DNA of 32,000 bases from Nitratidesulfovibrio vulgaris str. Hildenborough (GCF_000195755.1 NC_005863.1:30001-62000); one strand, 5' to 3'; shown: positions 1 to 28,305, counted from the stretch's first letter. Program-made: numbers and translations. Notes: generated by a model from the letters alone, not told the origin.

Positions 1-1241
1 CATCTTGCCCGCCCGGTCATGCATTCCGTGATGGCCGACGTCGGTCGAACGGCGCGCGGGCGTGCGCCCCTGCCACGGGCGGCTGCTCTGCGGGAGCATT
101 CCGGCGTGGATGGTGGCGGGCAGGTGTTCGGCGAAGAGCATGTCGCCATCGCCAGCCACGGCGAGGGTGCAGTCGATGACGTTGACCAGTTCACGCACGT
201 TACCGGGCCACGGATGGGCGAGAAGCCTCGCCCTGAACTCCGCCGACATCTGCCAGACCTTGCCGCCGTTGGATTCGGCCCGCGACTGGAGCAGGTGTTC
301 GGCTATCTCGATGATGTCCAGACCGCGTTCGCGCAACGGCGGCAGCAGCACGCGCATGGTGCTGATGCGGTACAGCAGGTCGTCGCGGAACGTGCCCTCG
401 CGCACCATCTCCTGAAGGTCCTTGTTGGTGGCCGCCACCAGCCTGAAGTCGCTCGACTCTTCACTGCCGCCACCCACCGGGCGATAGCGCCTCTCCTGCA
501 ACACGCGCAGGAACTTCTTCTGGAGCGACATGGGCAGTTCGCTGACCTCATCGAGGAAGAGCGTGCCGCCGTCAGCCTGCCTGATGAGGCCCACCCGCGA
601 TTTGGCCGCCCCGGTGAACGCCCCCTGCGAGTAGCCGAAGAGCAGGCTCTCCACGAGGTGTTCGGGCAGCGAGGCGCAGTCCACGGTGATGAGCGGGCCG
701 CCCCGGCGCTGGCTCATGCGGTGGATGGCGCGGGCGAAGAGTTCCTTGCCCGTGCCCGTCTCGCCTTGCAGCAGCACGTTCACGTCGGCATTGGACGAGC
801 GGGCGATGGTCTCGAACTGGGCACGCAACGCGGCGGACTGCCGAAGATGCCGAAGTCGCGCAAGTCCGGCCCTTCGGCCCCGTTGCCGCCGAAGGAGGGC
901 AGCCGCTCGAGCAGCGTCGTGATGGCGCGCGGGGCCTTGCCCTTGGGCATGTAGTTGAGTGCGCCGCTCAGCAGGGCCGCCTTGCCACGCTCGGGGTTGT
1001 ACCGTTCGGCCACGACGACCACCTGCGGGGCCGCCTGTGTGGAGCGCAGCCTCGGGATGCCTTCGAGCGCGTTGTCCATGCCCTCTTCAAGGACGACAAG
1101 CTGGCACGACGACGCGCGGCAATGCCTGATGCCGTCCTCAAGCGATGAGACGACCTTGAGGCTATGCCCGCCATCGGCGAACAGGCGCGAAAGATGCATG
1201 TACAGATCAGGCTGGTGCCCGATGAGCAGTACGTTGGCCAT
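1..1241 (-). pseudogene. sigma-54-dependent response-regulator-type activator (NtrC/AtoC/PrsR-like enhancer-binding protein); reading frame broken near nt 836-842; C-terminal HTH lies beyond the window start
   Basis: ATG 1241 follows an AAGGAA RBS and opens a CheY-like receiver (MANVLLIGHQ...NYMPKG) that runs into a stop at 780. A different minus-strand frame, open from about 838 to nt 1, reads SAALRAQFETIARSSNADVNVLLQGETGTGKELFARAIH...GYSQGAFTGAAK...TLFLDEVSEL...WPGNVRELVNVI. These are the Walker A, GAFTGA loop, Walker B and sensor regions of sigma-54 AAA+ activators. The frames abut at GIFGS/SAAL, as if one nucleotide were missing. This frame is absent from the ORF track because it has no stop inside the window. 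Confidence 0.7.
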
Positions 1242-2117: not shown

Positions 2118-2477
2118 TCAATAGTCTTGCGGATAGTATCCCTGCTGCTTGTAGTCGCCTTGCTGGTAGTAGTTCTTCATGTCCTCGTAGCTATGCAGTA
2201 AAGGGCCGGAGAACGATACGCCAACCTCCTTGCCGTAGCTCCACACTACTGAATAGTAGTGGTCGTGCAGAAAAGCAGGCTTGTAGTATTCTTCCTTGAC
2301 CTTGCCGTAGCTGCCGTAGCGCATGTCAGGGTCGTAGTCGCCTTGCAGTTGCAGACGCGCCCCACCCTGACTGATGTCCAGAAGCCTTGCGTAGTACTCT
2401 TCGCCGTTTATCTGGACGCTGCAATCATAGGCATAACCCTTCAGGTCAAGCCTCTGGTAGTTTCTGCGTTCTTGCAT
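2118..2477 (-). CDS. single-domain PilZ protein (c-di-GMP receptor), extremely tyrosine-rich with a YYQQGDYKQQGYYPQDY tail
   Basis: ATG 2477 is preceded by GGAGG. Canonical PilZ motifs RRNYQR (RxxxR) and DISQGG (DxSxxG) are present at the correct spacing. The upstream 107 codons of the 226-aa track ORF (2118..2798) have no RBS and a junk-like composition. 119 aa, 20 of them Tyr (hand count). Confidence 0.8.
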   Translation of the reverse strand: MQERRNYQRLDLKGYAYDCSVQINGEEYYARLLDISQGGARLQLQGDYDPDMRYGSYGKVKEEYYKPAFLHDHYYSVVWSYGKEVGVSFSGPLLHSYEDMKNYYQQGDYKQQGYYPQDY

Positions 2478-2760
2478 GGCTGTACCTCCAGCGTTGGTTG
2501 CGGTGCGCATCTGCCCACGGTCGCAGGCTTGCCGCGTCAAGGGCGTGCCTCGTTGCACGCAAGGGGAGGATGCAACTACCGTGCACGGCGCGCTTGCCGT
2601 GCCGGATGCGGTGCATTCCATAGAAAGTGTTTCATTTCGCATGGTTGTGAAGGCTGTGGGGGCGTGCTCGCTGAAGGATGCATAACTATCTGTTTTGCTA
2701 TCAGAAAGTCGATGCGAGGCGTTGTATCGGCGAATGGCAAGGCCTGTGACCTGCCGGAAG

Positions 2761-2797
2761 TGTTGCCTTATCCGACAACCTGTTGCGTTTTCCGACA
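2761..2797 (+). promoter_or_regulatory. two direct copies (20-bp period) of the 17-bp element TGTTGC(C/G)TT(A/T)TCCGACA; candidate enhancer-binding-protein site pair
   Basis: 2761-2777 is TGTTGCCTTATCCGACA and 2781-2797 is TGTTGCGTTTTCCGACA. Each differs at one position from the copy at 6809-6825. They lie in the non-coding spacer between the PilZ gene (start 2477) and the sigma-54 promoter at 3255. Confidence 0.45.
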
Positions 2798-3254
2798 TCG
2801 CCAGACGCCATCAGGCTATGCTGCGCCATGCCACGCCTGACCGGCGCCTGTCCGACGCCTGTCCCGTCATGGGCCCTTGCCGGACTCGTAAGGGGCCCAT
2901 GGCAGACCCGACTCCGTGCCCGCTTCATGCCGATGGCGCGCGGCGTTTCGCCCCGCCGCACGTCGTGCATCTGCATGATGCCACCCGCGTTTACCGCCAC
3001 CCTCAACGGTCTTGCCGACGCCACGCCACGTCTCGTGTGGGCTACCTGCGTCCCTATGCACGTGTCGCGGGCATTCGTCCCTCGCACGTCTGCGGGCGAT
3101 GGCTATCGCACGGACATGGTGAGGCCGTGCGGCGGGTCGCGTCGGGGTGCGCGCCTGCCGCGCACGGTTGCACCCCGTACTTGTAAAGGACGCAATCGTG
3201 GATGTTTCAGGGCTTTTTCCCTGAACTGCCGTAGTTATTGAAGCTTTTATAATA

Positions 3255-3270: not shown

Positions 3271-3320
3271 AAAAATGCGTGAATAAACGCATACCAGTTC
3301 CGTCACTTCAGGAGGTTCTT

Positions 3321-4022
3321 ATGCGAGTGGCACGTTTGGCAGCGGCTTTGGCTCTGGTTCTGGCATTGGCATCCATCGGCAACGCGGCGACGATGGAGAT
3401 CTTCGTGCGTCCGGAAGGGGACGCCGTGGGGGGGCAGGAACGCTATGGATACGGTTCCCCCTGGTATCAACTCGACCGTGATGCCACGGCGAACCCCAAC
3501 GCGGTCTATCACTGGTATTCTGATGGGAGCGGCGCGGCGCGGTGGACGTTCCTCCAGTTCGACCTCTCGGACCTTGCCGGCCTGGCTGACGCGGTGACCG
3601 GTGCGACGTTCAACTTCAATCTGCTGCCCGACGGCTGGGGAGAAGGCACACGCGGCAACCTCAATCACCTTTCCAATGCAGCCACGGCGAACGGACAGGC
3701 GACCCAGGGGCTTGGCGGCGACCAGCCTGTGGGCAGCGTGACGTCGGCCACGATCCTTGGCTGGAACCATTTCGACGTGACAGAGTACATCAAGGCCGAC
3801 CTCGCGGCGGGGTTCTCATGGTCGGTGTTCTCGTTCAATCAGGTGGGCTATGCGGGGATGTTCTTCAGCAGCGGCGAGACCGAAGAGCGCTCGTACCTGC
3901 AGGTCACCTACAACGGCGGCACCGTCGACCCCAACCTGCCCACGCCCGAACCTTCTTCGGTGGTGCTGATGCTGCTTGGCGCGGCGGGTCTTCTCGCCAT
4001 GCGTCGCAAGGGCGTCATGTAG
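3321..4022 (+). CDS. PEP-CTERM sorting-domain protein with a DNRLRE/CBM96-like N-terminal domain
   Basis: ATG 3321 follows GGAGG. Signal peptide MRVARLAAALALVLALASIGNA. C-terminus PTPEPSSVVLMLLGAAGLLAMRRKGVM has the PEP motif, a TM helix and a basic cluster. The core ARWTFLQFDLSDLAGL..VTGATFNFNL resembles DNRLRE-type domains (from memory, not searched). Confidence 0.9.
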   Translation: MRVARLAAALALVLALASIGNAATMEIFVRPEGDAVGGQERYGYGSPWYQLDRDATANPNAVYHWYSDGSGAARWTFLQFDLSDLAGLADAVTGATFNFNLLPDGWGEGTRGNLNHLSNAATANGQATQGLGGDQPVGSVTSATILGWNHFDVTEYIKADLAAGFSWSVFSFNQVGYAGMFFSSGETEERSYLQVTYNGGTVDPNLPTPEPSSVVLMLLGAAGLLAMRRKGVM

Positions 4023-4716: not shown

Positions 4717-5583
4717 CTAGGCGGTGCGCCGTGCGCGCCGCATCATCATGCCCAGTCCGCCAAGACCCATCAGCATCAGCACTGCCGACGCCGGTTCGGG
4801 GGTGGGCAGGGCGGTGATGGAGAGCAGGGTCTGGTGGGTCGTGGTGACGCCCTCGCTGGTCAGCCAGCCCACGGCATCGGCCGGGAGGCCAAGCAGGGTG
4901 CGGTAGGCCAGCGGAATGGGCGAGAACGACTTGGTGAAGTCCATCACGTAGTCGATGCCGTAGAAGTGGAAGGTCTCCTGCGTGACTTCGGGGTTCATGA
5001 GCACGAACACGTCCTGCTGTGTGCTGCCGGTGTTCGGGGTCTCGAAGAACTTGAAGTCCAGCGTGGTGGAGAACACGGGCAGCGACGTCGCCCCCGGAAG
5101 CTGCGGGATGAGCTGCAGGATGGCGCGTGCCGTGCCACTTTGCAGGGTGATGCTGTCGCCGGCAATGGCCTTGTTGCTGTGAGACAGCACAAGTCCGTTC
5201 ACGGCTGCGCCACCCGTGATCAGGGTACCGCCCACAGTGGGGGCGATGGAGATGGAACTGGTGGTGGCGCCGTTGTGGAAGACGTAGCCACTGCGGTTCG
5301 AGTATGTGTAGTCGCCCCACCGGAGGGTCGAGAAGCCGGGGGTGGTGACGGGGGCGGGCAGCATGACCCCGCCGTCGAAGAGGTAGGTGAGGCTCTTGCT
5401 GCCGATACCGGTGATGCCGTTGTTGGGGTCACCGGGGACGTTGGTGTCGTTGCGCGAGTTGGTCCACTCAACGAAGGCCCCGTCCACAGTGTATGTCCAT
5501 GAGGGGACGACCGCCGCCGATGCCGCCGTCTGCAAGAGCAGCGGGAAGAGCAGCGTGAGTGCGATGAGTGCGAGGCGTTTCAT
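4717..5583 (-). CDS. PEP-CTERM sorting-domain protein, paralog A (possibly the THxN-type PEP-CTERM family)
   Basis: ATG 5583 follows AGGAG. Signal peptide MKRLALIALTLLFPLLLQTAASA. C-terminus LPTPEPASAVLMLMGLGGLGMMMRRARRTA. Alignable along its full length with 5708..6568 (LPVFSTxLDFxFFETPN, DVFVLxNPEVTxETFHFYGxDYV). An HxN motif is present (LSHSN). Confidence 0.9.
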   Translation of the reverse strand: MKRLALIALTLLFPLLLQTAASAAVVPSWTYTVDGAFVEWTNSRNDTNVPGDPNNGITGIGSKSLTYLFDGGVMLPAPVTTPGFSTLRWGDYTYSNRSGYVFHNGATTSSISIAPTVGGTLITGGAAVNGLVLSHSNKAIAGDSITLQSGTARAILQLIPQLPGATSLPVFSTTLDFKFFETPNTGSTQQDVFVLMNPEVTQETFHFYGIDYVMDFTKSFSPIPLAYRTLLGLPADAVGWLTSEGVTTTHQTLLSITALPTPEPASAVLMLMGLGGLGMMMRRARRTA

Positions 5584-5610
5584 GACGAGTCTCCTGTGTC
5601 TTGTAGCTGC

Positions 5611-5640
5611 TTGCAGGAGCCTTGGTGAAGGCTCCTGCAA
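5611..5640 (-). promoter_or_regulatory. perfect 11-bp-stem hairpin between the tandem PEP-CTERM paralogs (attenuator, partial terminator or processing site)
   Basis: TTGCAGGAGCC-TTGGTGAA-GGCTCCTGCAA. No U-tract follows on the minus strand. No sigma-54 promoter was found between the hairpin and ATG 5583. Confidence 0.5.
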
Positions 5641-5707: not shown

Positions 5708-6568
5708 TTATGCCTGTGACCGGCGGCGCAGTCCGAAGAGGCCGAGCAGTCCGAGGCCCATCAGGATGATGGAGGTCGGTTCGGGGGTGGGCAGGGCGCG
5801 GATGCTGATCAGCGTATCGAAGGCGTTGTAGGCGTTCTCGGAGGTGATCCAGCCGACGGAACCGACGGGCAGGTTCAGCAGGGCGCGGTAGGTTTCGGGG
5901 ATGAGGCCGAACGAGCCGCCGAAGCTGAACACGTAGTCGACGCCGTAGAAGTGGAAGGTCTCTTCGGTCACTTCGGGGTTCAGCAGTACGAACACGTCGC
6001 TCTCGGTGTTCACGTTGCCGTTGGGGGTCTCGAAGAACAGGAAGTCGAGCTTGGTCGAGAAGACGGGCAGCGGCGGGTTGCCGGAGGGGGCGAGCGTCAG
6101 CACCGAGCGCACGACGCCGGACTTAAGCTGGATGGAGCCGCTGAGGATGGGCTGGTTGTAGTGGTACAGTTCCATGCCAAGCGACGTGGGGCCGTCGGTG
6201 ATCATGGTGCCACTGCGGGCGTTGATGCCGATGGAGCTGAGGTTGGCGCCGGGAATCTGGCTGTATACGGGGCCGGGGCCGCTCCATACGTAGTCGCCCC
6301 ACGCGATATGGCGATAACCCTTGGCCGACGTGCCGGGAGGAACCGGAACACCGCCGTCGAGGTTGTAGAACAGTTCTTCAGGCTCGAAGCCGGTGATGCC
6401 CTGGGCAGGCGTGTCTAACGTGCCGCTTGTGCCCACGGTGGTCTTCCAGCTGACGAAGATGCCGTCAACGGTGTAGTCCCATGCGGGGATGGGGGCTGCC
6501 AGTGCGTTGACCACCATCAGGGCGGTCAGGACCACGGTACCGAGAAGGGAAGAGAGCAGACGCTTCAT
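5708..6568 (-). CDS. PEP-CTERM sorting-domain protein, paralog B
   Basis: ATG 6568 follows AGGAGAAAAACC. Signal peptide MKRLLSSLLGTVVLTALMVVNALA. C-terminus LPTPEPTSIILMGLGLLGLFGLRRRSQA. HxN motif LYHYN. Confidence 0.9.
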   Translation of the reverse strand: MKRLLSSLLGTVVLTALMVVNALAAPIPAWDYTVDGIFVSWKTTVGTSGTLDTPAQGITGFEPEELFYNLDGGVPVPPGTSAKGYRHIAWGDYVWSGPGPVYSQIPGANLSSIGINARSGTMITDGPTSLGMELYHYNQPILSGSIQLKSGVVRSVLTLAPSGNPPLPVFSTKLDFLFFETPNGNVNTESDVFVLLNPEVTEETFHFYGVDYVFSFGGSFGLIPETYRALLNLPVGSVGWITSENAYNAFDTLISIRALPTPEPTSIILMGLGLLGLFGLRRRSQA

Positions 6569-6626
6569 GGTTTTTCTCCTCATTTCATGAGGTTAAAAAT
6601 TGCGTGAGCAAAGTTGCATGGTATTA

Positions 6627-6642
6627 AGCAATGACTGTTCCA
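6627..6642 (-). promoter_or_regulatory. sigma-54 (-24/-12) promoter for PEP-CTERM paralog B
   Basis: The minus strand reads TGGAACAGTCATTGCT, with GG and GC separated by exactly 10 nt. It ends 59 nt upstream of ATG 6568. An AT-rich tract (6644-6700) lies between the promoter and the upstream 17-bp elements, which would suit DNA bending. Confidence 0.65.
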
Positions 6643-6719: not shown

Positions 6720-6736
6720 TGTCAACCTATCCGACA
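6720..6736 (+). promoter_or_regulatory. 17-bp TGTnnn-N5-CCGACA element, proximal site upstream of the 6627-6642 promoter
   Basis: TGTCAACCTATCCGACA, about 80-110 nt upstream of the -24 element on the minus strand. Confidence 0.4.
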
Positions 6737-6808: not shown

Positions 6809-6825
6809 TGTTGCCTTTTCCGACA
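6809..6825 (+). promoter_or_regulatory. 17-bp TGTnnn-N5-CCGACA element, distal site upstream of the 6627-6642 promoter
   Basis: TGTTGCCTTTTCCGACA matches the copies at 2761 and 2781 at 16 of 17 positions. The 12-mer TTTTCCGACAGG is identical to 11052-11063. Confidence 0.5.
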
Positions 6826-7253
6826 GGGTGCCGGAGAGCGTGCACGGGGACGCAGGAGGGGCCGCGGGTCTGGACACCACGTGAGAGGTGGGCGTCAGGT
6901 GAGAGGCAGGCTGAAGAAGGCGGGCGAAAGTGAAGGGGGGGGCGATGTGCCCCCCCGTGTCATTGCATGCGGCGTCTCCCGCGGCCATTCCCGTGGCGCC
7001 TCGCCTCGTGGCGTCCTGCGCCTTCCTGCGCCCTCCTGTGCAGTCCGGCGTTGTTTGGCACTGTCGGGGGCGTCCGGGGCCGACCTCGTTCCCGGTTGTC
7101 CGGGGCCTCTCCGCCTGACCGGGGCTTCTCGGCTGCCCCGTACTGCCCCGGTGTCCGCCTTGGTCGGGCTGTGGGGCCGTCCTGCGACGTCTTCGGCACA
7201 TCCGCCTCATGCACCGCCTTCGAGGCCATCCGCCGTCACGCGCCTTCTCGCCC

Positions 7254-10223
7254 TCACTCGGCAGGCAGCAGGAAGTCCGACAGCGGACGACGGAACGTGC
7301 CATGCCGGATGGGTGCGGCGACACCGGCACGGAACATCATGACGGGCAGTCGTCCCTTGGGGTGGGGCAGCACCTGTTCGAGAAGCGTCCACGCCTCTTC
7401 CAGCAGGCGCTGATGTGCGGTGTCCAGCGTCTGCGGGTCGCCCATGGCGAGGCGCAGGTGCAGCAGGGGCAGGGCCGCCAGCGGTTGCATGGCATAGCCC
7501 ATGTGTTCGAGGGCGCACCACGCCCGTTGCCACGCCATGCCCGCGCGGGCGATGTCCGTCTCCGTCTCGCCGTTGGCCAGCAGCAGCCCGATGCCGCCGC
7601 TTCGCAGCACGCCCATCGCCCCGTGCAGGGGCATGAGGCGCCCGAGGCCGAGGGCGTTGGCGATGCTCATGTTGCGCCACGGCCTCACGGCACGCAGGTA
7701 CAGTTCACCGGCGAGTCCCGCTTCGAGGTTCGCCAGCGGCAGTCCGTCGCCGTATGGCCCGTTCCCGGCGTGGCTGTGATGCCCTGCCTGCCCGGTGTGC
7801 CCCTGTTGCCCGACCTCTCCCTGTTGCTCGGCCTGCCCGTCGAAGCGGATGAAGCGCATGAGGTGTTCATGCATGTCGCGCCGTTCGACGCGCACCCTGT
7901 CGGCGAGGTAGACGGCCCGCGCAAGGGTCTTGCGCTGCGCCGCGTCCGTCGCCCACAGGAGGGTGGCGTCCTGTTCCTCGCTGACGAGGTGCTCGATGCG
8001 CTCGCACACCTCCACGGGCAGGGGGCGCGCGGCGTACATGCGGCGGTTGGTGTGCCTGCGCCACAGGGCGGCGGTCATGATCTCGTGCGAGGGCACGCCC
8101 AGCGGCGTGCAGTGCAGCGAGGCCACACGGTCGGGCTTCGTGGCGTCGGGAAAGAGCGAGAGCGTGGCATCGAGTCCCGCGCTGCCCGAGGCGTAGACGG
8201 CGTTCTGCACCGCGGCCCCGCAGGCCAGCAGCGAGGCCACATGGCGGTAGTCGAAGAACGAGCCGTCGGCCTGCCTGTCGAGATGGATGTGCAGCCCCGT
8301 GGCATGGGGGACGAAGCGCCACGGCTGCACGTTGTCGCCGGAGGGTGCCTGCATGGCGGCGCGGGCCACGTAGTGCAGGGTCTCGAGCGGGATGTCCTGC
8401 CGCAGTGCCACCACGTCGGGTTCTGGCGGGGGCGGCGTGCCGGTGCGCGGCGCACCCATGAAGAACCGGCGGGCGATGGCGAGCTTCAGCCGTTGCAGCG
8501 GCGAGCGCAGTCCCTTGCGGAGCCTGCCCCGCACATGACGGCCCGTGAGCGGGTCGAACTGCCTGAAGTACGGCACGGGGCGTATGCCCCGGCGGTGCAG
8601 CAGGATGCGCACGGCTTCGGTGGCGGCCATGCCCGCACAGAGATGGCAGGCGATGTCCAGCGACGGCCCCCGCCTGTCGTGCAGGCTGACGAAGCGCCTG
8701 TCCATGTAGCCGAGGTGCGCCGGGCGCGGGGCCAGCCCCATGCCGAAGCGCAGGTAGCCCTCCATGGGGGGCGTGTCGTCGTCGATGCCGAAGTAGCTGT
8801 CGAAGTTCATGCCCCCCGGCATGAAGACGAGCAGGGCGCACGAATAGCCGAGCGGCCCGGCGGTTATGACCGGAATGCCCAGTTCGAGCGCGCGGTTGAA
8901 GAGCCTGCGGCGGATGTCGAGGGCGAAGAAGTCGATGCCGTCCACCAGCAGGTCGACATCCTTGAGGAAGGCGTCGATGGTCTCGGCGGCGACGCCCTCG
9001 GGGAAGGAGCGGATGTCGAGGAACGGGTTCACGCTGAGGGCGCGTTCGGTCATGACGTCGAGCTTGCCGCGCCCGAAGCTGGCGATGCTGGCCCCGTACT
9101 GCCGGTTGAGGTTCACCGGCGAATAGGCGTCGAAGTCGGCGAGGTTGAAGTTGCCGATGCCCGTGCGCGCCAGCGTCATCAGATGGATGCCTCCCACGCC
9201 GCCAAGCCCCGCGATGGCGACCCGCGAGCGCAAGAGTCTGCGTTGTCCCGCGTAGTCCACGAGGCCGAGGTTGCGGCTGAAGGCGATGTCGGTATAGGCG
9301 TCGCGCGTCTCGAGTTTGAGCATGTCCAGCGGTACGCCGCCGGGGGTCTCGGGGTGCACCGGGTTGGTCGAGAAGTGGTTGAACACCGCGCGGTGGTAGA
9401 TGGTCTCGATGTGGTCGCGCTGGGGTTCGGCCAGATGGTCGAGCAGTTCGGGGCGCTGCTGCAACAGATAATAGGCGGTGTACGGTTCCAGTGGCCTGTC
9501 GCGGCGCACGGGGTTCTCGGAGGTCTCGGTCTCGTCGCTGTTCATGCGGGCGAAGAAGGCGAAGAGGTTGGTCTCGAAGTCCTCCTCGTCGCCGTACTTC
9601 TCCTGCAACTCGTCCATGGCCTCGTGCAGGTCGATGCGCAGGGCCACCGCCGGGGCGTCCACCGTGTCGTAGTGGCGCACCTCGCCGAAGGGTTTGAAAA
9701 GGAAGATGTCGGTGTAGAACTTCACATGCTTCGGGTTCACGGTGACGAGGATGTCGTCCACCTCCGACATCATGGAGTACTGGAACATGGCCTTGGCGAG
9801 AAAGACCATGAGGTTCGTCCACCGGCGGCTGTACTGCGTGGCAAGCGCGCCCACCTCCACCACGTTGCGCCCCTGGGCGCGCAGGGCGTCCACCTCGGGC
9901 TTGTAGAGGGTGTCCATGGGCAGGCCGAACAGCCCGGAGTCGGGGATGTGGGTCAGCGTGCACAGCACGTCGTGGTAGCTTTTGAAGATGAAGACCGAGG
10001 TGGCGGGCAGAATGCTCCAGACATTGTAATACATTCTTGATGGATGCGGCTTGAGATAGCCCGAGCGGATGTACTCTTCGTACACGAGGCGGAAGGCCCG
10101 TGTATACTCGTCGGGCGTTTCCGCGATCTTGATGGCGGGCCTGTCCAGCGCCCCCAGCTTGTTCTGCAGGAGCGAGGAACGCTTGATGCGGATGGTACGG
10201 CGCTTGTCGGCGATGGCGAGCAT
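7254..10223 (-). CDS. 989-aa three-domain protein: FeeM-like N-acyl amino acid synthase (GNAT-fold) + ThiF/MoeB-type E1-like adenylyltransferase + tandem nitroreductase-like module (Rv1355c-like C-terminal two-thirds)
   Basis: ATG 10223 with GAGG upstream. aa ~30-205 (nt ~9609-10136): FRLVYEEYIRSGYL...GLFGLPMD...VVEVGALAT...ILVTVNPKHVKFY, as in FeeM/autoinducer-synthase-like acyltransferases. aa ~315-545 (nt ~8589-9281): VAIAGLGGVGGIHLMTLARTGIGNFNLADFDAYSPVNLNRQ (ThiF glycine loop and NLNRQ). aa ~605-985 (nt ~7269-8411): AMQAPSGDNVQPWRF and LWRRHTNRRMY (nitroreductase-fold signatures in two halves). A Gln/Gly/His low-complexity insert lies at aa 796-826. Confidence 0.9.
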   Translation of the reverse strand: MLAIADKRRTIRIKRSSLLQNKLGALDRPAIKIAETPDEYTRAFRLVYEEYIRSGYLKPHPSRMYYNVWSILPATSVFIFKSYHDVLCTLTHIPDSGLFGLPMDTLYKPEVDALRAQGRNVVEVGALATQYSRRWTNLMVFLAKAMFQYSMMSEVDDILVTVNPKHVKFYTDIFLFKPFGEVRHYDTVDAPAVALRIDLHEAMDELQEKYGDEEDFETNLFAFFARMNSDETETSENPVRRDRPLEPYTAYYLLQQRPELLDHLAEPQRDHIETIYHRAVFNHFSTNPVHPETPGGVPLDMLKLETRDAYTDIAFSRNLGLVDYAGQRRLLRSRVAIAGLGGVGGIHLMTLARTGIGNFNLADFDAYSPVNLNRQYGASIASFGRGKLDVMTERALSVNPFLDIRSFPEGVAAETIDAFLKDVDLLVDGIDFFALDIRRRLFNRALELGIPVITAGPLGYSCALLVFMPGGMNFDSYFGIDDDTPPMEGYLRFGMGLAPRPAHLGYMDRRFVSLHDRRGPSLDIACHLCAGMAATEAVRILLHRRGIRPVPYFRQFDPLTGRHVRGRLRKGLRSPLQRLKLAIARRFFMGAPRTGTPPPPEPDVVALRQDIPLETLHYVARAAMQAPSGDNVQPWRFVPHATGLHIHLDRQADGSFFDYRHVASLLACGAAVQNAVYASGSAGLDATLSLFPDATKPDRVASLHCTPLGVPSHEIMTAALWRRHTNRRMYAARPLPVEVCERIEHLVSEEQDATLLWATDAAQRKTLARAVYLADRVRVERRDMHEHLMRFIRFDGQAEQQGEVGQQGHTGQAGHHSHAGNGPYGDGLPLANLEAGLAGELYLRAVRPWRNMSIANALGLGRLMPLHGAMGVLRSGGIGLLLANGETETDIARAGMAWQRAWCALEHMGYAMQPLAALPLLHLRLAMGDPQTLDTAHQRLLEEAWTLLEQVLPHPKGRLPVMMFRAGVAAPIRHGTFRRPLSDFLLPAE

Positions 10224-10270
10224 GGTGACCTCGCGGAGGATGCTTCACGGTTGGGCAGCGTACCGGGTGA

Positions 10271-10286
10271 AGCCAGTTTCGTGCCA
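10271..10286 (-). promoter_or_regulatory. sigma-54 (-24/-12) promoter for the three-domain enzyme gene
   Basis: The minus strand reads TGGCACGAAACTGGCT, with GG and GC separated by exactly 10 nt. It has the same TGGCAC...TGGCT style as the prsT promoter. It ends 48 nt upstream of ATG 10223. Confidence 0.65.
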
Positions 10287-10307
10287 GCAACGTCAAGTGC
10301 GAGGTTT

Positions 10308-10336
10308 TTCGACAGTAAGGTGTCGGAATGCCGACC
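10308..10336. promoter_or_regulatory. cluster of TGTCGG/CCGACA half-sites between two divergent sigma-54 promoters
   Basis: TTCGACA (10308-10314), 6 nt, TGTCGG (10321-10326), AATG, CCGACC (10331-10336). The half-sites match the 17-bp element, but the spacings (N6 and N4) differ from the N5 seen elsewhere. Confidence 0.45.
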
Positions 10337-10377: not shown

Positions 10378-10393
10378 TGGCATGAATGTGGCA
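10378..10393 (+). promoter_or_regulatory. sigma-54 (-24/-12) promoter upstream of the third PilZ gene
   Basis: TGGCATGAATGTGGCA has GG and GC separated by exactly 10 nt, with a TGGCA -12 element. It ends 117 nt upstream of GTG 10510. Confidence 0.5.
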
Positions 10394-10509: not shown

Positions 10510-11073
10510 GTGAAGAATGTTGCAGTCGACACACAGGCTGGTGCACGTCTTGCCGATGTAGCACAATGCCTTGAATGCCAGCCGGGACATCTCGCTTCGG
10601 GCATTCTCAATTCATTTTTCGAATGCAATGCAGTACACGGCGATGCAACGACGTCTGAAAAGCGCAGGCTTGGCAGACGGGCGACGCACATTGCAGCCGT
10701 CACCTGCGCATGTGATGGCGAGAACGAGAGCAGGTGCACACCTGCCATCATCAGTAACATCTCCCTTTGCGGTGTGCGGGCCGAGGTACCGCATTCGTCA
10801 TCCGGCTATGGTAGCATCATGCGCAAGGTCGGTGCATTCGAACTGATGTTCACGTTTCCTTCAGAAGACGAAGTGGTGACGTTCAAGTGCCGCATGAAGT
10901 ATGTGCTCGACGGCGAGCGTACGGTGCTTGGCGGGGCCTTCGTAAGTCCTGATATCGTTTCGCTTCGTGCGCTGGTGCGCTTTCTGTTGTCACCGCAGGC
11001 CCGGCCCGAGTCGTCGCAAACGCCTTGTCGGACAGGCTTACAGGTGTCGGGTTTTCCGACAGGCACGGCCTAG
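10510..11073 (+). CDS. PilZ-domain protein (putative c-di-GMP receptor) with a Cys-containing N-terminal extension
   Basis: RRLGRR (RxxxR) and NISLCG (NxSxxG) are present at PilZ spacing, with a C-terminal LGGAFVSPD strand. GTG 10510 overlaps a GGAGG. The start is uncertain and the true N-terminus could be further downstream. Confidence 0.55.
   Translation: MKNVAVDTQAGARLADVAQCLECQPGHLASGILNSFFECNAVHGDATTSEKRRLGRRATHIAAVTCACDGENESRCTPAIISNISLCGVRAEVPHSSSGYGSIMRKVGAFELMFTFPSEDEVVTFKCRMKYVLDGERTVLGGAFVSPDIVSLRALVRFLLSPQARPESSQTPCRTGLQVSGFPTGTA
11026..11061. promoter_or_regulatory. two adjacent 17-bp elements, one a perfect palindrome; candidate upstream activating sequence for the prsT-eps operon promoter
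   Basis: 11026-11042 is TGTCGGACAGGCTTACA (right half degenerate). 11045-11061 is TGTCGGGTTTTCCGACA (perfect 6-N5-6 inverted repeat). Centres are 19 nt apart. They lie about 210-245 nt upstream of the sigma-54 promoter at 11270 and overlap the 3' end of the PilZ ORF. Confidence 0.55.
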
Positions 11074-11269: not shown

Positions 11270-11285
11270 TGGCACGGTATTGGCT
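11270..11285 (+). promoter_or_regulatory. sigma-54 (-24/-12) promoter of the prsT-exopolysaccharide operon
   Basis: TGGCACGGTATTGGCT has a perfect TGGCAC -24 element and GG and GC separated by exactly 10 nt. It ends 41 nt upstream of GTG 11326, with RBS ACGGAGG at 11314-11320. Confidence 0.75.
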
Positions 11286-11325: not shown

Positions 11326-13986
11326 GTGTGGAATAAGCTGTGCCTTTCCGTCTGCTGTGCGATTCTCGTTCTCACTGCCTCGTCATGCGGGGCGGACAAG
11401 TCATCGGACTTCCTCACCGAAGGGCGCAAGCTCATGGACGCGGGCAATGCCGCGGGTGCGGTGGTGCTGTTCCGCAATGCACTTGAGAAGACCCCCGCCG
11501 ATTATACACTGCACCTTGAACTGGGCAGGGCCTATATCGCCCTTGGCAAGCTCGACCTCGCCGAGGGCGAACTGCAGAAGTGCCTGCGCCAGCAACCCGA
11601 CGACCCGCCGCTGAACCTCGCCCTCGGCGAACTCTACGTGGCACGCAACGAACCGGCCAAGGCGCTGCCGCATCTGGCCCGCTACGAACAGGGCGCGGGC
11701 GAGACGGCCGTCTCGCGTGAACTGGCGGGGCTGGCCCATGCGCAGGCGCGGTCGCCGGAAGAGGCGCGCGCGGCCCTCGAACGCTCCATCGCCCTCGACG
11801 CCAAGCGCGTCACGCCACGTCTGGCGCTGGCGCGGCTGTTCCTCTACAGGGGCGACCTCAAGCGCGCCGTCGCCACCGTGGACGAGGCACTCGCCGTCGC
11901 CCCCGAAGACAGGTTGGCCCTCACGCTGCGTGGCGACCTGCTGCTGCGGCAGGGCGACGCGCCCGGTGCGTTGGTGGTGTTCCGCAAGGTCGCCAGCCTG
12001 GCCCCCGGCGACGACTATGCCCGCTACATGTCGGGCCTTCTGGCCCTGCAGACCGGCGACGAGGCCGGGGCCGCCGCCGTTGCGGCATCCATGAACAAGG
12101 ACTTCAAGGACAACTCGCTGACCCTGATGCTGGACGGCGCCCTCGCCGCGCAACGCAAGGACTACACGCTTGCGGCGTCGCTGTTCCAGCGCAGCGTGGC
12201 CATGCGTCCAAGCCTCGAGGGCTACTACAAGCTTGGCATGGCCCTCTACGGCAAGGGCGACCTCGAGACGGCCCTCAGCCAGTTCAACCGCGTGCTCGAA
12301 GCCACACCGGAATACGATGCGGCCCGCCGCATGACCGTCACCATCCTGCTTGCGCAACGGCGAGTGGCCGAGGCACGGCAGGAGGCGCAGAAGCTCGTGG
12401 AGCGCAACCCCTCCGACGCCGCGGCGCACTTCATGCTGGCCTCGGCGCAGATGGCGGCGGGCGACAGGGCCGGGGCCGAACGCTCGTTCGAGGCGGGGCT
12501 TGCCCTGCAACCGGCCCATGTGCCCGCACTCCTGCAACTCAGCCGCCTGAAGCAGGCCGACGGACGGCCCGACGAGGCGCTTGAAGACCTCAAGGCCGCC
12601 GTTGTCGCCGCACCCGACGACCTCGCCGTGCGCAACGCCCTCTTCGCCTACCATCTGGGACGGGGCGACACGGGCAAGGGCGTCCAGGTCGTCCTCGAGG
12701 GCCTGCGCGGCACTCCGCAGGACGCCATCCTCTACACCATGCTGGTGCCCGTCTACGTCAACATGGGCGACGAGGCGAAGGGCCTCGACGCGGTGGCGCA
12801 GGCGCACAGGGCCGACCCCGACTTCCCCGACGCCTACCTTGCCGGGCTGCGCCTCCACGCCGGGGCCGGCAGGGCGGAACAGGCCCTTGCCGAGAGCGAG
12901 GCCTATCTCGCCCGCAAGCCCGATGCTCCGGGCTTCCTGCTGGCGTCGGGCGCCCTGCTCGACCTTCTTGGCAGGACGGCGGAGGCCGACGCCCGCTTCG
13001 ACAAGGCGCTGGCCGCCAACGACCCCCGCGTCTCGTTCGCGGTGGCCGAACGCGCCGTGGCCTCGGGGCAGGACGAGAAGGCCCGCCGCGTTCTCGAAGA
13101 GGCCCTGCGGCAGCACGACCAGACGACCCTGCGCGACGCGCTCGCCATCCAGCTTGCGCGCATGGGCAAGCCCGACGACGCCCTCGCCCTCTATACCGCC
13201 ATCGAGACGCAACGCCCTCGCGAGGCGCTGCTGGGCCGCTACCGGCTGCTGACGCACCTCGACCGGCATCAGGAGGCGGCGGACACGGCACGTGAACTGG
13301 GACGGCGTGAGAGCGCGTCGCCGCTGCCCGTCCTGCTCGAAGCCGCCGCGTTCGAGCGCATGGGGCAGCGCCCGCAGGGCGTGGCCCTGCTCGAGGCGGC
13401 CCACCGCAAGAGCGGCGACCCCGAACTGCTGCTGGCCATGGGCGGTATGCTCGAACGCAACGGCGACGAGGCCCGTGCCGAGACCTGCTACCGCGACGCC
13501 CTCAAGGCGCGGCCCGACCATGTGCCCACCCTGCTGGCCTACGCGGGGCTGGACATGCGCCGCAAGGAGTACGCCAAGGCCACGGCCCTCTACGAGAAGG
13601 CCGTGAGCATCGCCCCCGACGACGTGGTGGCGCTGAACAACCTCGCCATGGCCTACCTCGAGAAGGCCAGCCGTGATGCGACGCCGCAGAAGGCCCTGCG
13701 TCTGGCGTTGCAGGCGTACACCCGCGCTCCCGACAACCCCGCCGTGCTCGACACCCTCGGCGTGTGCATGATGGCCAACGGACGTGCCGACGACGCAGCG
13801 CGCGCCTTCGGTCGTGCCGTGGTCGCCGTGCCCGGCAACCCGTCGCTGCGCTACCGCCATGCCGAGGCGCTCTTCAAGGCGGGCCGCAAGGACATGGCGG
13901 CTGAAGAACTGCGCGCGGCCCTTCAGACGCCCGACTTCCCCGAGGCGGCCAAGGCACGCGACCTGTTGCGCAAGACCGGCAACTGA
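11326..13986 (+). CDS. prsT: PEP-CTERM system TPR-repeat lipoprotein (PrsT family, TIGR02917-like)
   Basis: GTG 11326 follows GGAGG and gives (M)WNKLCLSVCCAILVLTASSCGADK, a lipoprotein-type signal with Cys. About 886 aa of back-to-back TPR repeats (AxxxLxxALxxxPxxxxAxxxLGxxY pattern throughout). The size and its position as first gene of the locus match PrsT. The track ORF start at 11239 lies upstream of the promoter. Confidence 0.85.
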   Translation: MWNKLCLSVCCAILVLTASSCGADKSSDFLTEGRKLMDAGNAAGAVVLFRNALEKTPADYTLHLELGRAYIALGKLDLAEGELQKCLRQQPDDPPLNLALGELYVARNEPAKALPHLARYEQGAGETAVSRELAGLAHAQARSPEEARAALERSIALDAKRVTPRLALARLFLYRGDLKRAVATVDEALAVAPEDRLALTLRGDLLLRQGDAPGALVVFRKVASLAPGDDYARYMSGLLALQTGDEAGAAAVAASMNKDFKDNSLTLMLDGALAAQRKDYTLAASLFQRSVAMRPSLEGYYKLGMALYGKGDLETALSQFNRVLEATPEYDAARRMTVTILLAQRRVAEARQEAQKLVERNPSDAAAHFMLASAQMAAGDRAGAERSFEAGLALQPAHVPALLQLSRLKQADGRPDEALEDLKAAVVAAPDDLAVRNALFAYHLGRGDTGKGVQVVLEGLRGTPQDAILYTMLVPVYVNMGDEAKGLDAVAQAHRADPDFPDAYLAGLRLHAGAGRAEQALAESEAYLARKPDAPGFLLASGALLDLLGRTAEADARFDKALAANDPRVSFAVAERAVASGQDEKARRVLEEALRQHDQTTLRDALAIQLARMGKPDDALALYTAIETQRPREALLGRYRLLTHLDRHQEAADTARELGRRESASPLPVLLEAAAFERMGQRPQGVALLEAAHRKSGDPELLLAMGGMLERNGDEARAETCYRDALKARPDHVPTLLAYAGLDMRRKEYAKATALYEKAVSIAPDDVVALNNLAMAYLEKASRDATPQKALRLALQAYTRAPDNPAVLDTLGVCMMANGRADDAARAFGRAVVAVPGNPSLRYRHAEALFKAGRKDMAAEELRAALQTPDFPEAAKARDLLRKTGN

Positions 13987-26913: not shown

Positions 26914-26988
26914 CGCGGCGTCAGCGTCGATGTTTTCAGGGGATTTCGTGCATCAGGCGAAGCGACACCGGACGTGAGGAGGGAACAT

Positions 26989-28305
26989 ATGCAGGCAAGA
27001 ACACCCGTTATCGCCGTGGCGCGCATCCTGCGCCATGCGTGGAGGCTTGGACGCAAGGTCGTGCGTGCCATGCGCGCCGACCACTGCCCGCTGCCGCTGC
27101 CCTCGTTCGCGTACCTGAACGGAGAGGGCGACATGGCGCGGTTGCACCGTGCCTGCCAAAGGCTGGACGTGTCACGCTGCGTGACCGCCGCCTCGTGGGT
27201 GCGGCTTCTCATCAGCACGCTGTCGTGGCCCGGCAGTGCGTTCATGGGCAGCGTCGCCCGGGCGGTGCGGCAGGGGGGCGACGTGGCCCGCCGTTACCAT
27301 GTGCCGCGCTGGCGGCAGGTGGGCCAAAGCTACAAGGCGGCCATGCGCCACAACATGAACGCGCGGCTGTTCTACGACTTCGACCTCTTCCGGCCCGACG
27401 CGCCAAGCCCCGGCAGCTTCATCATGCCGCATGAACTGCGCATCATCGCCGATGTGCTGTCCGCCACCAGCATGTCGCCCGACATCACCGACCGCGTGGC
27501 CTTCCTGCGCCGTTGCGACGAACTGGGTCTGCCCTGCGTGCCGGTGCTGGCGCGCTTCGACCCCGACGGCACGGTGGCATGGGCCGAAGACGCCCTGCAA
27601 CAGGCGCAGGGGCGCGACCTGTACCTCAAGCCCGCCGACTGGGACGACGGGCTGTGCGGCGAACTGTGGCAATGGCGCAGCGGGCAGGGCTGCTGGCTGC
27701 GGCACGGCAACCGGGTGACGCTGGACGACATCGGGGCGCGCGCACGCGACCTTTCCGCAGGGCGCACCATGCTGCTGCAACCCTTCGAACCCGCCCACCC
27801 CGTGTTGCGGCCCCTCGGCCTTCTGGGGTCGTGCTCGGTGCGCTGCTTCACGCTGGCGGCCATCGGGGGCGAACCGGAACTCGTCGCGGCGCTGACGCGT
27901 ATCCCCGGCGGGTGGTGGCGGGCCGAATGCGGCCCGGAATACGGCCTCACGGCGCGGGTGGTCGACCTGCGGACGGGTGAACTCGGCGATGGCGTCAAGA
28001 GCCGTTCGCCGCAACGCTGGAAGCGCCACCCCGAGACGGGCGAGGTCATCGCCGGCCTGCGTCTGCCCCTGTGGGACGAGGCACGCGCCCTCGCCACCGA
28101 GGCGCACCGCCTGATGCCCGACTACCCCGTCATGTCGTGGGACATCGTCATCGGCACCGACACGTTGCGGCTTCTGGGCGGCAGCCCCGCGCCGCGCATC
28201 GACACCGCACGCTTCCCGGCGGGCGAGGGCATGAACGACGAACGGTTCGCCAACTTCATCCTCGCGCATTGCGAACGGCTGGGTGCCGTGGCCGCCGTGC
28301 ATTGA
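26989..28305 (+). CDS. sugar-transfer-associated ATP-grasp family protein (ATPgrasp_ST-like)
   Basis: ATG 26989 follows GAGGAGGG. LFYDFDLFRP, then DLYLKPADW, MLLQPFE and HPETGEVIAGLRLPLWDEA...MSWDIVIG match my recollection of this family. No search was run. Confidence 0.65.
   Translation: MQARTPVIAVARILRHAWRLGRKVVRAMRADHCPLPLPSFAYLNGEGDMARLHRACQRLDVSRCVTAASWVRLLISTLSWPGSAFMGSVARAVRQGGDVARRYHVPRWRQVGQSYKAAMRHNMNARLFYDFDLFRPDAPSPGSFIMPHELRIIADVLSATSMSPDITDRVAFLRRCDELGLPCVPVLARFDPDGTVAWAEDALQQAQGRDLYLKPADWDDGLCGELWQWRSGQGCWLRHGNRVTLDDIGARARDLSAGRTMLLQPFEPAHPVLRPLGLLGSCSVRCFTLAAIGGEPELVAALTRIPGGWWRAECGPEYGLTARVVDLRTGELGDGVKSRSPQRWKRHPETGEVIAGLRLPLWDEARALATEAHRLMPDYPVMSWDIVIGTDTLRLLGGSPAPRIDTARFPAGEGMNDERFANFILAHCERLGAVAAVH

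Follow-up and report, generated by a model that had tools for sequence, protein, structure and literature searches.

Gene DVUA0034 of Nitratidesulfovibrio vulgaris encodes a probable single-chain N-acyl oxazolone pathway within a PEP-CTERM locus

Why would a sulfate-reducing bacterium combine a synthase of N-acyl amino acids (NAS), a ThiF-like adenylating enzyme and a nitroreductase-like flavoenzyme in one polypeptide, and why is this polypeptide encoded next to PEP-CTERM surface proteins? The question is raised by gene DVUA0034, located in a 32,000-nucleotide stretch of N. vulgaris str. Hildenborough (NC_005863.1:30001-62000), referred to below as the window. The original prediction for this gene held that its product could acylate, adenylate and oxidize an amino-acid-derived molecule linked to PEP-CTERM sorting, and this proposal agrees with all of the findings reported here. 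The protein is probably a complete N-acyl oxazolone pathway in a single chain, that is, a fused version of OxzA-OxzB or, equivalently, of TrzA-TrzS. As judged from its conserved genomic neighborhood, the most likely place of action of the lipid product is the cell envelope or matrix, where it would join the adjacent PEP-CTERM proteins as a signal, surfactant or modifier.

Pfam, PDB sequence searches and Foldseek agree on the presence of all three domains, and every motif quoted in the original prediction was located in the protein (GLGGVGG at residues 339-345, NLNRQ at 371-375, QPWRF at 633-637 and WRRHTNRRMY at 721-730). The N-terminal domain scores clearly as a FeeM-type synthase, with a Pfam FeeM match over residues 43-198 (E = 4.9e-44), a PDB sequence match to 2g0b (E = 2.3e-13) and a Foldseek alignment to the same structure with a target-normalised template modelling (TM) score of 0.85 at 26% identity. 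Its conserved residues include E50, Y56, D95, G100-L101-P102-x-D104, R133 and P164, and its FGLPMD and VNPKH motifs are mostly invariant in 24 tri-domain homologs, with conservation of at least 90% otherwise. Standalone synthase homologs of ~290 aa align through residue ~280 of DVUA0034; residues 200-280 are therefore a C-terminal extension of the synthase rather than a true linker. A basic peptide with an RxxxR-like pattern (DKRRTIRIKRS, residues 6-16; 10175-10208, minus strand) precedes the FeeM fold; it is kept in all fused homologs, and matches of the standalone ~290-aa homologs also begin at residue 4-7.

The central domain matches Pfam ThiF over residues 316-565 (E = 6.3e-49), exceeds the cutoff of PRK08223 (354 versus 266 bits) and resembles PDB entry 1zfn both in sequence (E = 1e-13) and by Foldseek (TM 0.80). 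The GLGGVGG loop, D365, N371/N373/R374/Q375, K387 and the D428 and D431 residues of VDGxDFF are invariant in the 24 homologs, and the Gly loop, Arg/Lys and Asp motifs line up with their counterparts in Escherichia coli ThiF. The remaining part of the protein had been described as a double nitroreductase-like module, and in the structural model the C-terminal ~390 aa indeed form one Acg-type flavin-dependent oxidoreductase (FDO) domain containing two nitroreductase-like halves in one chain. It aligns by Foldseek with the Acg homologue 2ymv (E = 7e-13, target-normalised TM 0.79 over 394 columns), which is also its PDB sequence match (E = 1.8e-6), while Pfam Nitroreductase covers residues 609-638 only (E = 1.7e-8). 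Residues invariant in the 24 homologs comprise the APSGDNxQPW motif (A626-P627-S628-G629-D630-N631 and Q633-P634-W635), W721, R723, T725 and R727, as well as R778, E780, R781 and Q913.

The AlphaFold2 model was built from 24 homologs and has a mean predicted local distance difference test (pLDDT) score of 77.9, with low-confidence stretches at residues 1-27, 132-135, 213-218, 228-239, 277-305, 366-382 and 797-822. The last of these is a low-complexity insert within the FDO domain that is disordered in the model, and varies in length between strains. A relative with 94% identity has a longer version, whereas most homologs lack the insert; it could serve metal binding or reflect slippage variation.

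The open reading frame (ORF) itself is well defined. Approximately 23 homologous clusters share the FeeM, ThiF and Nitroreductase Pfam set with the minus-strand frame, and the NCBIfam model NF011425 (PRK14852, a 989-position "hypothetical protein") is matched at positions 1-989 with 2396.7 bits against a cutoff of 1337, which together identify this frame as the real one. Long ORFs in other frames over the gene are the usual by-product of high G+C content. A GAGG ribosome-binding site lies 5 nt 5′ of the ATG, and the end at position 10286 given in the original prediction corresponds to the coding sequence (CDS) plus a 63-nt 5′ leader holding a sigma-54-like site. A curated model for the full fusion already exists; the fusion is rare and uncharacterised, and no paper describing it was found in the literature search.

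The ThiF-nitroreductase part of this architecture, known from Rv1355c, had been regarded in the original prediction as being of unknown function, which is out of date, since OxzB, TrzS and TyzABC have been characterized. OxzA, an N-acyltransferase, and OxzB, an ATP-dependent ThiF-nitroreductase di-domain protein, produce N-acyl tyrazolones and phenazolones (de Rond, Asay & Moore; 10.1101/2020.06.11.147165). In Mycobacterium tuberculosis, N-acyl tyrazolones are made by TyzA, TyzB and TyzC (Grigg et al., PMC10404671), of which TyzA has a FeeM/acyl-homoserine lactone (AHL) synthase fold and TyzC belongs to an Acg-like FDO subgroup (PMC10404671). OxzA, like TyzA, has the FeeM/AHL-synthase fold. 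TrzA/TrzS (Rv1356c/Rv1355c) yield N-acyl tryptazolones via ATP-dependent cyclisation of N-acyl-Trp followed by O2-dependent desaturation (Kleetz et al., PMC12856293); cyclisation is lost in the TrzS D217A variant, while the flavin site is crippled in R540A and Q651A (PMC12856293). Desaturation by TyzC is likewise O2-dependent. In addition, the combination of NAS, ThiF and nitroreductase has been proposed to produce the N-acyl-2,3-dehydrotyrosines known as stieleriacines, thalassotalic acids and kyonggic acids (PMC12479983).

Matches of DVUA0034 to the Rv1355c-family profile (NCBIfam NF005901; 222.4 bits, E = 1e-65, in two stretches covering the ThiF and FDO parts) and to the Acg-family profile are the reason that it is best read as a single-chain equivalent of OxzA-OxzB. 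By homology to the characterized enzymes, which underlies all three steps, the FeeM-type synthase would first move a fatty acyl group from acyl-CoA or acyl-acyl carrier protein (ACP) onto the alpha-amine of an amino acid; this amino acid is aromatic in the characterized systems, and the choice made by DVUA0034 may differ. ATP-dependent cyclisation would follow, in which attack by the amide oxygen closes a 5(4H)-oxazolone (azlactone) ring. Finally, the Acg-type FMN domain would take two hydrogens across C-alpha/C-beta to give an unsaturated oxazolone, which could hydrolyse to an N-acyl-2,3-dehydro-amino acid. Fusion of the three activities would channel the labile intermediates.

A close architectural parallel, likened here through domains and published descriptions, is OxzA/OxzB from Pseudoalteromonas rubra and other Proteobacteria, which has the same order of N-acyltransferase, ThiF and nitroreductase-superfamily domain. 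In OxzB, the ThiF domain and flavoenzyme are fused, and oxzA lies directly 5′ on the same strand, as in many of the surveyed loci. In contrast, DVUA0034 has the acyltransferase fused as well, in one chain of 989 aa, is hosted by an anaerobic sulfate reducer, and sits in a sigma-54/PrsR-controlled PEP-CTERM locus. Like TrzS, it keeps the Asp of the adenylation motif (D428/D431) and the invariant Arg and Gln of the FDO, which belongs to the Acg-like monomeric subgroup. The mycobacterial TrzA/TrzS and TyzABC systems, however, require O2 for desaturation, occur in hosts that lack a PEP-CTERM system and use a separate acyltransferase; sulfate reducers are not mentioned in the supplement of PMC10404671.

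The clusters for stieleriacines, thalassotalic acids and kyonggic acids contain the same trio as DVUA0034 (NasY, ThiF and nitroreductase), but as separate genes, with methyltransferases and several NAS copies, and in aerobic marine hosts. In the Stieleria maiorica cluster, PEP-CTERM gene Mal15_37300 is located near nitroreductase gene Mal15_37310, and the cluster as a whole adjoins exopolysaccharide (EPS) genes (PMC7293339, PMC12479983), an adjacency that parallels the window. The N-terminal domain of DVUA0034 has its fold and GLPMD motif in common with FeeM (2G0B), an N-acyl tyrosine synthase from soil environmental DNA; FeeM is a standalone, acyl-ACP-dependent protein of 198 aa, whereas DVUA0034 adds the basic N-terminal peptide, a helical extension of ~80 aa and two further enzymes. 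A parallel to the cyclisation step is found in TcdA, the tRNA ct6A dehydratase, a ThiF-family enzyme that carries out ATP-driven cyclisation of an N-acylated amino-acid moiety to an oxazolone and is among the PDB sequence matches of DVUA0034; unlike DVUA0034, TcdA takes tRNA as its substrate and works with neither a flavoenzyme nor an acyltransferase. DVUA0034 is probably a fully fused, anaerobe-hosted architectural variant of a known pathway.

Several observations weigh against assigning an oxazolone pathway to DVUA0034. Its scores fall below the family cutoffs (222 versus 476 bits for the Rv1355c family and 128-134 versus 199 bits for the Acg family), so that it counts as homologous to the characterized equivalog families without belonging to them. 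Its presumed equivalents of TrzS D217, R540 and Q651 are placed by conserved motifs only, and the chemistry suggested for it and for its close homologs rests on homology. Moreover, characterized desaturation uses O2, yet D. vulgaris and nearly all hosts of the close homologs are anaerobes, which makes both the oxidant and the formation of an unsaturated oxazolone at all uncertain. The sigma-54 promoter suggested for DVUA0034 is also missing from the published D. vulgaris sigmulon.

The linkage of the three activities was surveyed in 82 non-redundant loci. Scanning GTDB species genomes confirmed 438 relatives and provided 80 loci, of which 78 were used, and four more were added via protein look-up. 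FeeM, ThiF and FDO are fully fused in six loci, four from Desulfovibrionaceae and two from Desulfobacterales, the latter with a much shorter linker, and FeeM is fused to ThiF in one further locus. FeeM is encoded adjacent to a ThiF-FDO fusion in 9 of the 82 loci and within 0.7-4 kb in 12, while three consecutive genes are found in eight (Thiobacillus, Sulfuricella, Ferrovum and Burkholderiales-type Betaproteobacteria). In D. mangrovi, for instance, the FeeM gene (295 aa) and the beginning of the ThiF-FDO gene (686 aa) share 8 nt, and the gene order in Thiobacillus denitrificans is FeeM-like, ThiF (PRK08223, 462 bits) and FDO; the separate FeeM-like gene of Thiobacillus has no match to TIGR03694 at the 1e-6 limit. 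The closest homologs of DVUA0034 belong to Desulfovibrionales and Desulfobacterales. When residues 1-300 were searched against 1.84 billion representatives, 1851 relatives were obtained at E ≤ 1e-10. Standalone proteins of ~290 aa make up almost the entire top 150 and few are long, from which it follows that the full fusion is rare.

The PEP-CTERM/exosortase-associated acyltransferase family TIGR03694, invoked in the original prediction, proved relevant to the loci but not to the protein: residues 1-300 of DVUA0034 have no match to it at E ≤ 1 (cutoff 111.95) and fall in the Pfam FeeM subfamily instead, whereas elsewhere TIGR03694 proteins have the same genomic role and are encoded 5′ of ThiF-FDO genes, accounting for 14 of the 27 same-strand ORFs found 5′ of the module in loci without a FeeM-profile match (up to E = 3.6e-79).

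Other architectures also occur in the FeeM subfamily, including FeeM with nitroreductase and glycosyltransferase (1092 aa), FeeM with glycosyltransferase (731 aa), tandem FeeM (585 aa) and FeeM with a domain binding cyclic nucleotide monophosphates (P0217, P0222, P0142 and P0204; L015 8405-9676, minus strand). At locus L013, a gene for an MMPL/RND transporter (7082-9379, plus strand) separates the FeeM gene from the ThiF-FDO gene, and at L028 the same position holds an ORF resembling it in size. The MMPL exporter of L013 and the FeeM-glycosyltransferase fusions point to an exported or conjugated lipid.

The connection with PEP-CTERM proteins was found to hold and to be broader than originally proposed, and its generality had not been quantified before. 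Thirty-two of the 82 loci, from Thermodesulfobacteriota and from Alpha-, Beta- and Gammaproteobacteria, carry a PEP-CTERM ORF of 250-400 aa no more than 1.5 kb away from the module, and in 25 of these 32 loci it is found just beyond the FDO end. The density of PEP-CTERM ORFs is 1.45 per 10 kb beside the module versus 0.08 per 10 kb at a distance of 7.5-10 kb in the same loci. No EPS marker is present within 10 kb in 14 of the 32 cargo-bearing loci; the phmmer markers PrsT and glycosyltransferase are unspecific (tetratricopeptide repeat and sugar-transferase families) and were used only conservatively, to call EPS absence. This is seen clearly in T. denitrificans RG (L085, 9707-13889), where genes for the FeeM-like protein, ThiF, FDO and a PepA-type "flocculation-associated" PEP-CTERM protein form a compact block with the cargo after the FDO. 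Upstream of this block are hemB and a gene for a YihA GTPase, downstream is a gene for a methyltransferase, no scanned neighbor matches an EPS family, and the locus is thus a clean example of the module paired with cargo and not with polysaccharide genes. The cross-phylum pairing of ThiF-FDO with cargo suggests the cargo itself, and not polysaccharide synthesis, as the partner of the product.

The possibility that the neighboring PEP-CTERM proteins constitute one family was rejected. The many cargo matches seen before trimming arose from the shared sorting tail; after its removal, 13 of 33 proteins match the THxN (five), EDSAP-1 (five) or PepA (three) profiles, and pairwise and profile searches resolve 22 groups.

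A link between NAS and PEP-CTERM/exosortase systems was already published in 2011, according to papers citing Craig, Cherry & Brady (J Bacteriol 193:5707), and novelty was to that extent overestimated in the original prediction. In Methylomonas LW13, knockout of the NAS abolishes polysaccharide band formation. For the ThiF/FDO part or for oxazolones, the literature search revealed no paper drawing a connection to PEP-CTERM beyond the descriptions of the Stieleria cluster (PMC7293339, PMC12479983), which draw no general link.

Close association with cargo also bears on an alternative in which the oxazolone or acyl-adenylate is an activated electrophile that is passed to a nucleophile of the PEP-CTERM system (the amine of a deacetylated EPS sugar, a cargo protein or an exosortase lipid), making the enzyme a lipidation or anchor-building device. 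The immediate proximity of cargo in 32 of 82 loci fits this scheme, though the mature domains come from different families, as do the 14 of those loci lacking a nearby EPS marker and the lability of oxazolones, which hydrolyse within hours at pH 8. It is also in line with the report that producers of stieleriacines, thalassotalic acids and kyonggic acids have no detected oxazolones despite their ThiF genes (PMC12479983), with the existence of the FeeM fusions to glycosyltransferase, with or without nitroreductase, and with the presence in the XrtA locus of a polysaccharide deacetylase and a FemAB-like protein. However, free oxazolones or N-acyl dehydroamino acids accumulate in every characterized system, no transferase has been identified in these systems and no conjugate has ever been reported, and mycobacteria possess the pathway without a PEP-CTERM system; such transfer is therefore considered unlikely.

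A more specific version, regarded as quite unlikely, would make the ThiF-FDO module a dedicated accessory of PEP-CTERM/exosortase sorting, whose azlactone or acyl-adenylate lipidates the neighboring cargo or its matrix attachment site, or else builds a membrane or EPS acceptor for exosortase cargo, with an O2-independent acceptor in anaerobes. If true, it would provide the long-sought anchoring chemistry of exosortases and a physiological role for bacterial oxazolones.

A further alternative concerns the last step, namely, that the FDO of anaerobes is not an O2-dependent desaturase but is inactive, structural or engaged in other redox chemistry, so that a saturated N-acyl amino acid, a saturated oxazolone or something else is the product. 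The O2-dependence of TyzC and TrzS, the occurrence of the closest homologs in Desulfovibrionales and Desulfobacterales, and the interruption of the domain by a strain-variable disordered insert are all consistent with this view. Nevertheless, the invariance of the FDO signature residues in the 24 homologs argues for a conserved catalytic function, and the fold is modelled with high confidence outside the insert, leaving this explanation very unlikely.

An analogy with thiazole/oxazole-modified peptide (TOMM) pathways, which had been drawn in the original prediction, would have the ThiF domain dock or adenylate the C-terminus of a peptide or protein and the flavoenzyme oxidize azolines in the manner of SagB. 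ThiF-family enzymes such as MccB and PaaA often act on peptide or protein C-termini, and PEP-CTERM proteins are encoded next door. The flavoenzyme is, however, of the Acg/FDO type, with no SagB model among the matches of the C-terminal 398 aa, no YcaO-type protein is annotated within ~8 kb or among the scanned neighbors, and no precursor peptide is annotated nearby, and the analogy is accordingly unsupported and highly improbable. Finally, the role in molybdopterin or thiamin biosynthesis implied by database names, i.e., that of a MoeB/ThiF adenylyltransferase for a sulfur carrier, is almost certainly wrong, given that weak matches of 60-75 bits to MoeB and ThiF profiles are offset by equivalog scores of 55-75 bits against cutoffs of 159-647, by a single CxxC (C526, C529) and hence no four-cysteine zinc site of the MoeB/ThiF kind, by the lack of any ThiS/MoaD-type protein annotated among the neighboring genes, and by fusion of the domain to FeeM and FDO.

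The putative single-chain oxazolone pathway of DVUA0034 is encoded inside the PrsR/sigma-54-controlled PEP-CTERM/XrtA biofilm locus of a pDV1-type megaplasmid (Table 1). Plasmid pDEVAL01 of N. vulgaris RCH1 matches the window at 100% identity and the DP4 plasmid at 99.5%, and the annotated relatives recovered by a translated search of a plasmid collection were limited to the three plasmids of N. vulgaris and one partial match in Bdellovibrio. A strain lacking pDV1 forms approximately three-fold less biofilm. In cells dispersed from biofilm, dvua0034 is repressed, and producing it changes biofilm formation (PMC6170446). The genomic context described in the original prediction is correct, with two THxN PEP-CTERM genes downstream and a complete, divergently oriented XrtA/PEP-CTERM EPS locus upstream.

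Table 1. Features of the DVUA0034 locus (window coordinates).
Feature	Coordinates	Strand	Details
CDS of the 989-aa tri-domain protein	7254..10223	minus	ATG start, TGA at 7256-7254; DVUA0034 on pDV1 (Hildenborough), DEVAL_RS15845 / WP_011176612.1 (N. vulgaris RCH1)
FeeM-type N-acyl amino acid synthase domain	9627..10142	minus	residues 28-199; Pfam, PDB, Foldseek
Helical C-terminal extension of the synthase, then low-confidence linker (277-305)	9309..9626	minus	residues 200-305
ThiF-like adenylating / cyclase domain	8454..9308	minus	residues 306-590; Pfam, PRK08223, E. coli ThiF alignment
Acg-type FDO, single-chain double nitroreductase fold	7269..8426	minus	residues 600-985
His/Gly/Gln-rich low-complexity insert in FDO (GQAEQQGEVGQQGHTGQAGHHSHAGN...)	7758..7835	minus	residues 797-822
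Candidate sigma-54-type -24/-12 element TGGCACGAAACTGGCT	10271..10286	minus	48-63 nt upstream of ATG
TGTCGAAAAACCTCGCA	10298..10314	minus	in L001-conserved block just upstream of the -24 element
Likely terminator: perfect G7-loop-C7 hairpin, then T-rich tail CTTCACTTTC	6936..6956	minus	300 nt past the DVUA0034 stop
DVUA0032, THxN-family PEP-CTERM cargo gene	5708..6583	minus	next gene downstream
DVUA0031, second THxN-family PEP-CTERM cargo gene	4717..5640	minus	operon with DVUA0032
orf187, diverged PilZ-domain gene (RefSeq "hypothetical protein")	10510..11073	plus	divergent from DVUA0034
prsT (DVUA0036), first gene of XrtA/PEP-CTERM EPS operon	11326..13986	plus	published sigma-54 promoter 11270-11285

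DVUA0034 appears to be transcribed as a unit of its own, from a candidate sigma-54 promoter to a likely hairpin terminator. An own sigma-54 promoter had been predicted for the gene, and conservation speaks for it: the 16-mer TGGCACGAAACTGGCT is identical, and in the same place, in the 65%-identical ortholog L001, as part of a conserved block amid diverged DNA, and it shares both the -24 and the -12 element with the promoter published for DVUA0036. The GG/GC at the aligned columns is kept in L003 and L004 but not in L008. Counts do not add to the case, as three sigma-54-like sites were found in the window versus 1.35 expected, which is not significant. Upstream of homologous modules, sites scoring at least 5 occur in 14 of 79 loci versus 6 and 2 in two controls, a modest difference. 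Furthermore, DVUA0034 is not listed among the published sigma-54 promoters of D. vulgaris or the targets of DVUA0057 (PrsR). The promoter is therefore plausible but unproven.

Just upstream, TGTCGAAAAACCTCGCA may be a degenerate DVUA0057 site: it resembles the TGT-N11-ACA pattern of this PrsR-type regulator but ends in GCA. The palindrome GTCGGcattCCGAC (10322-10335), tried as an enhancer site, was rejected as it is not conserved in L001. Another sigma-54-like site, TGGCATGAATGTGGCA (10378-10393, plus strand), faces the PilZ gene; L001 has TGGCACGAATGTGGCA at the corresponding position. Paired with the site at 10271-10286 on the minus strand, this plus-strand site would constitute back-to-back sigma-54 promoters ~90 bp apart. 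A candidate regulator of DVUA0034 is the ortholog of the enhancer-binding protein DVUA0025/24 (1-1241, minus strand), which runs off the edge of the window; RCH1 has an intact copy, and the Hildenborough copy is a frameshifted pseudogene (PMC4641369). In L001 and L003, this regulator is syntenic with the fusion gene, along with a MacB-type ABC transporter, an HlyD-like protein and an Rce1/CPBP protease.

On the downstream side, the hairpin is likely a terminator that makes DVUA0034 monocistronic, and it is located upstream of the enhancer sites of DVUA0032. A sigma-54 promoter of DVUA0032-31 has been published at 6627-6642, with DVUA0057 (PrsR) binding sites at 6809-6825 and 6720-6736. Beyond the THxN pair are a second PilZ-domain gene (2118-2798, minus strand) and a gene for a CBM96-containing PEP-CTERM protein, DVUA0030 (3279-4022, plus strand), the latter a published PrsR target.

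On the opposite side, orf187 has no Pfam match; its product matches a Pfam-annotated PilZ neighbor in L003 by BLASTP (E = 5e-17) and keeps RRLGRR (RxxxR) and NISLCG (NxSxxG). The gene recurs as a conserved partner of the fusion in related Desulfovibrionaceae loci: L001 and L003 have a homolog that is likewise divergent from the fusion gene, and others are found in loci L008 and L012. This PilZ partner hints at an input from cyclic di-GMP. The XrtA EPS set following prsT comprises matches to TIGR03013, 03027, 03007, 03018, 03015, 03016, 03006 and 03019. This locus further encodes, at 26974-28305 and 28360-29757 on the plus strand, an ATP-grasp protein associated with sugar transfer and a protein matching TIGR03097 (exosortase A-associated, O-antigen-ligase-like) weakly, with a score below the cutoff. 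No exosortase gene is present among the ORFs scanned in the 32-kb window; according to Haft's table, the exosortase is DVU_A0055/56, located outside it.

The locus brings together two questions that are open in the literature: the role of bacterial N-acyl oxazolones, and the reason for the association of NAS enzymes with PEP-CTERM/exosortase systems. DVUA0034 is currently named "ThiF family adenylyltransferase" in RefSeq, and this annotation, like "molybdopterin/thiamine biosynthesis", is misleading for hundreds of proteins. If the reading of DVUA0034 as a single-chain pathway is correct, the whole three-step pathway would be contained in one gene of a genetically tractable model sulfate reducer, beside regulator-controlled PEP-CTERM proteins and an EPS operon, and the locus thereby offers a testable clue to the purpose of these poorly understood oxazolone lipids.

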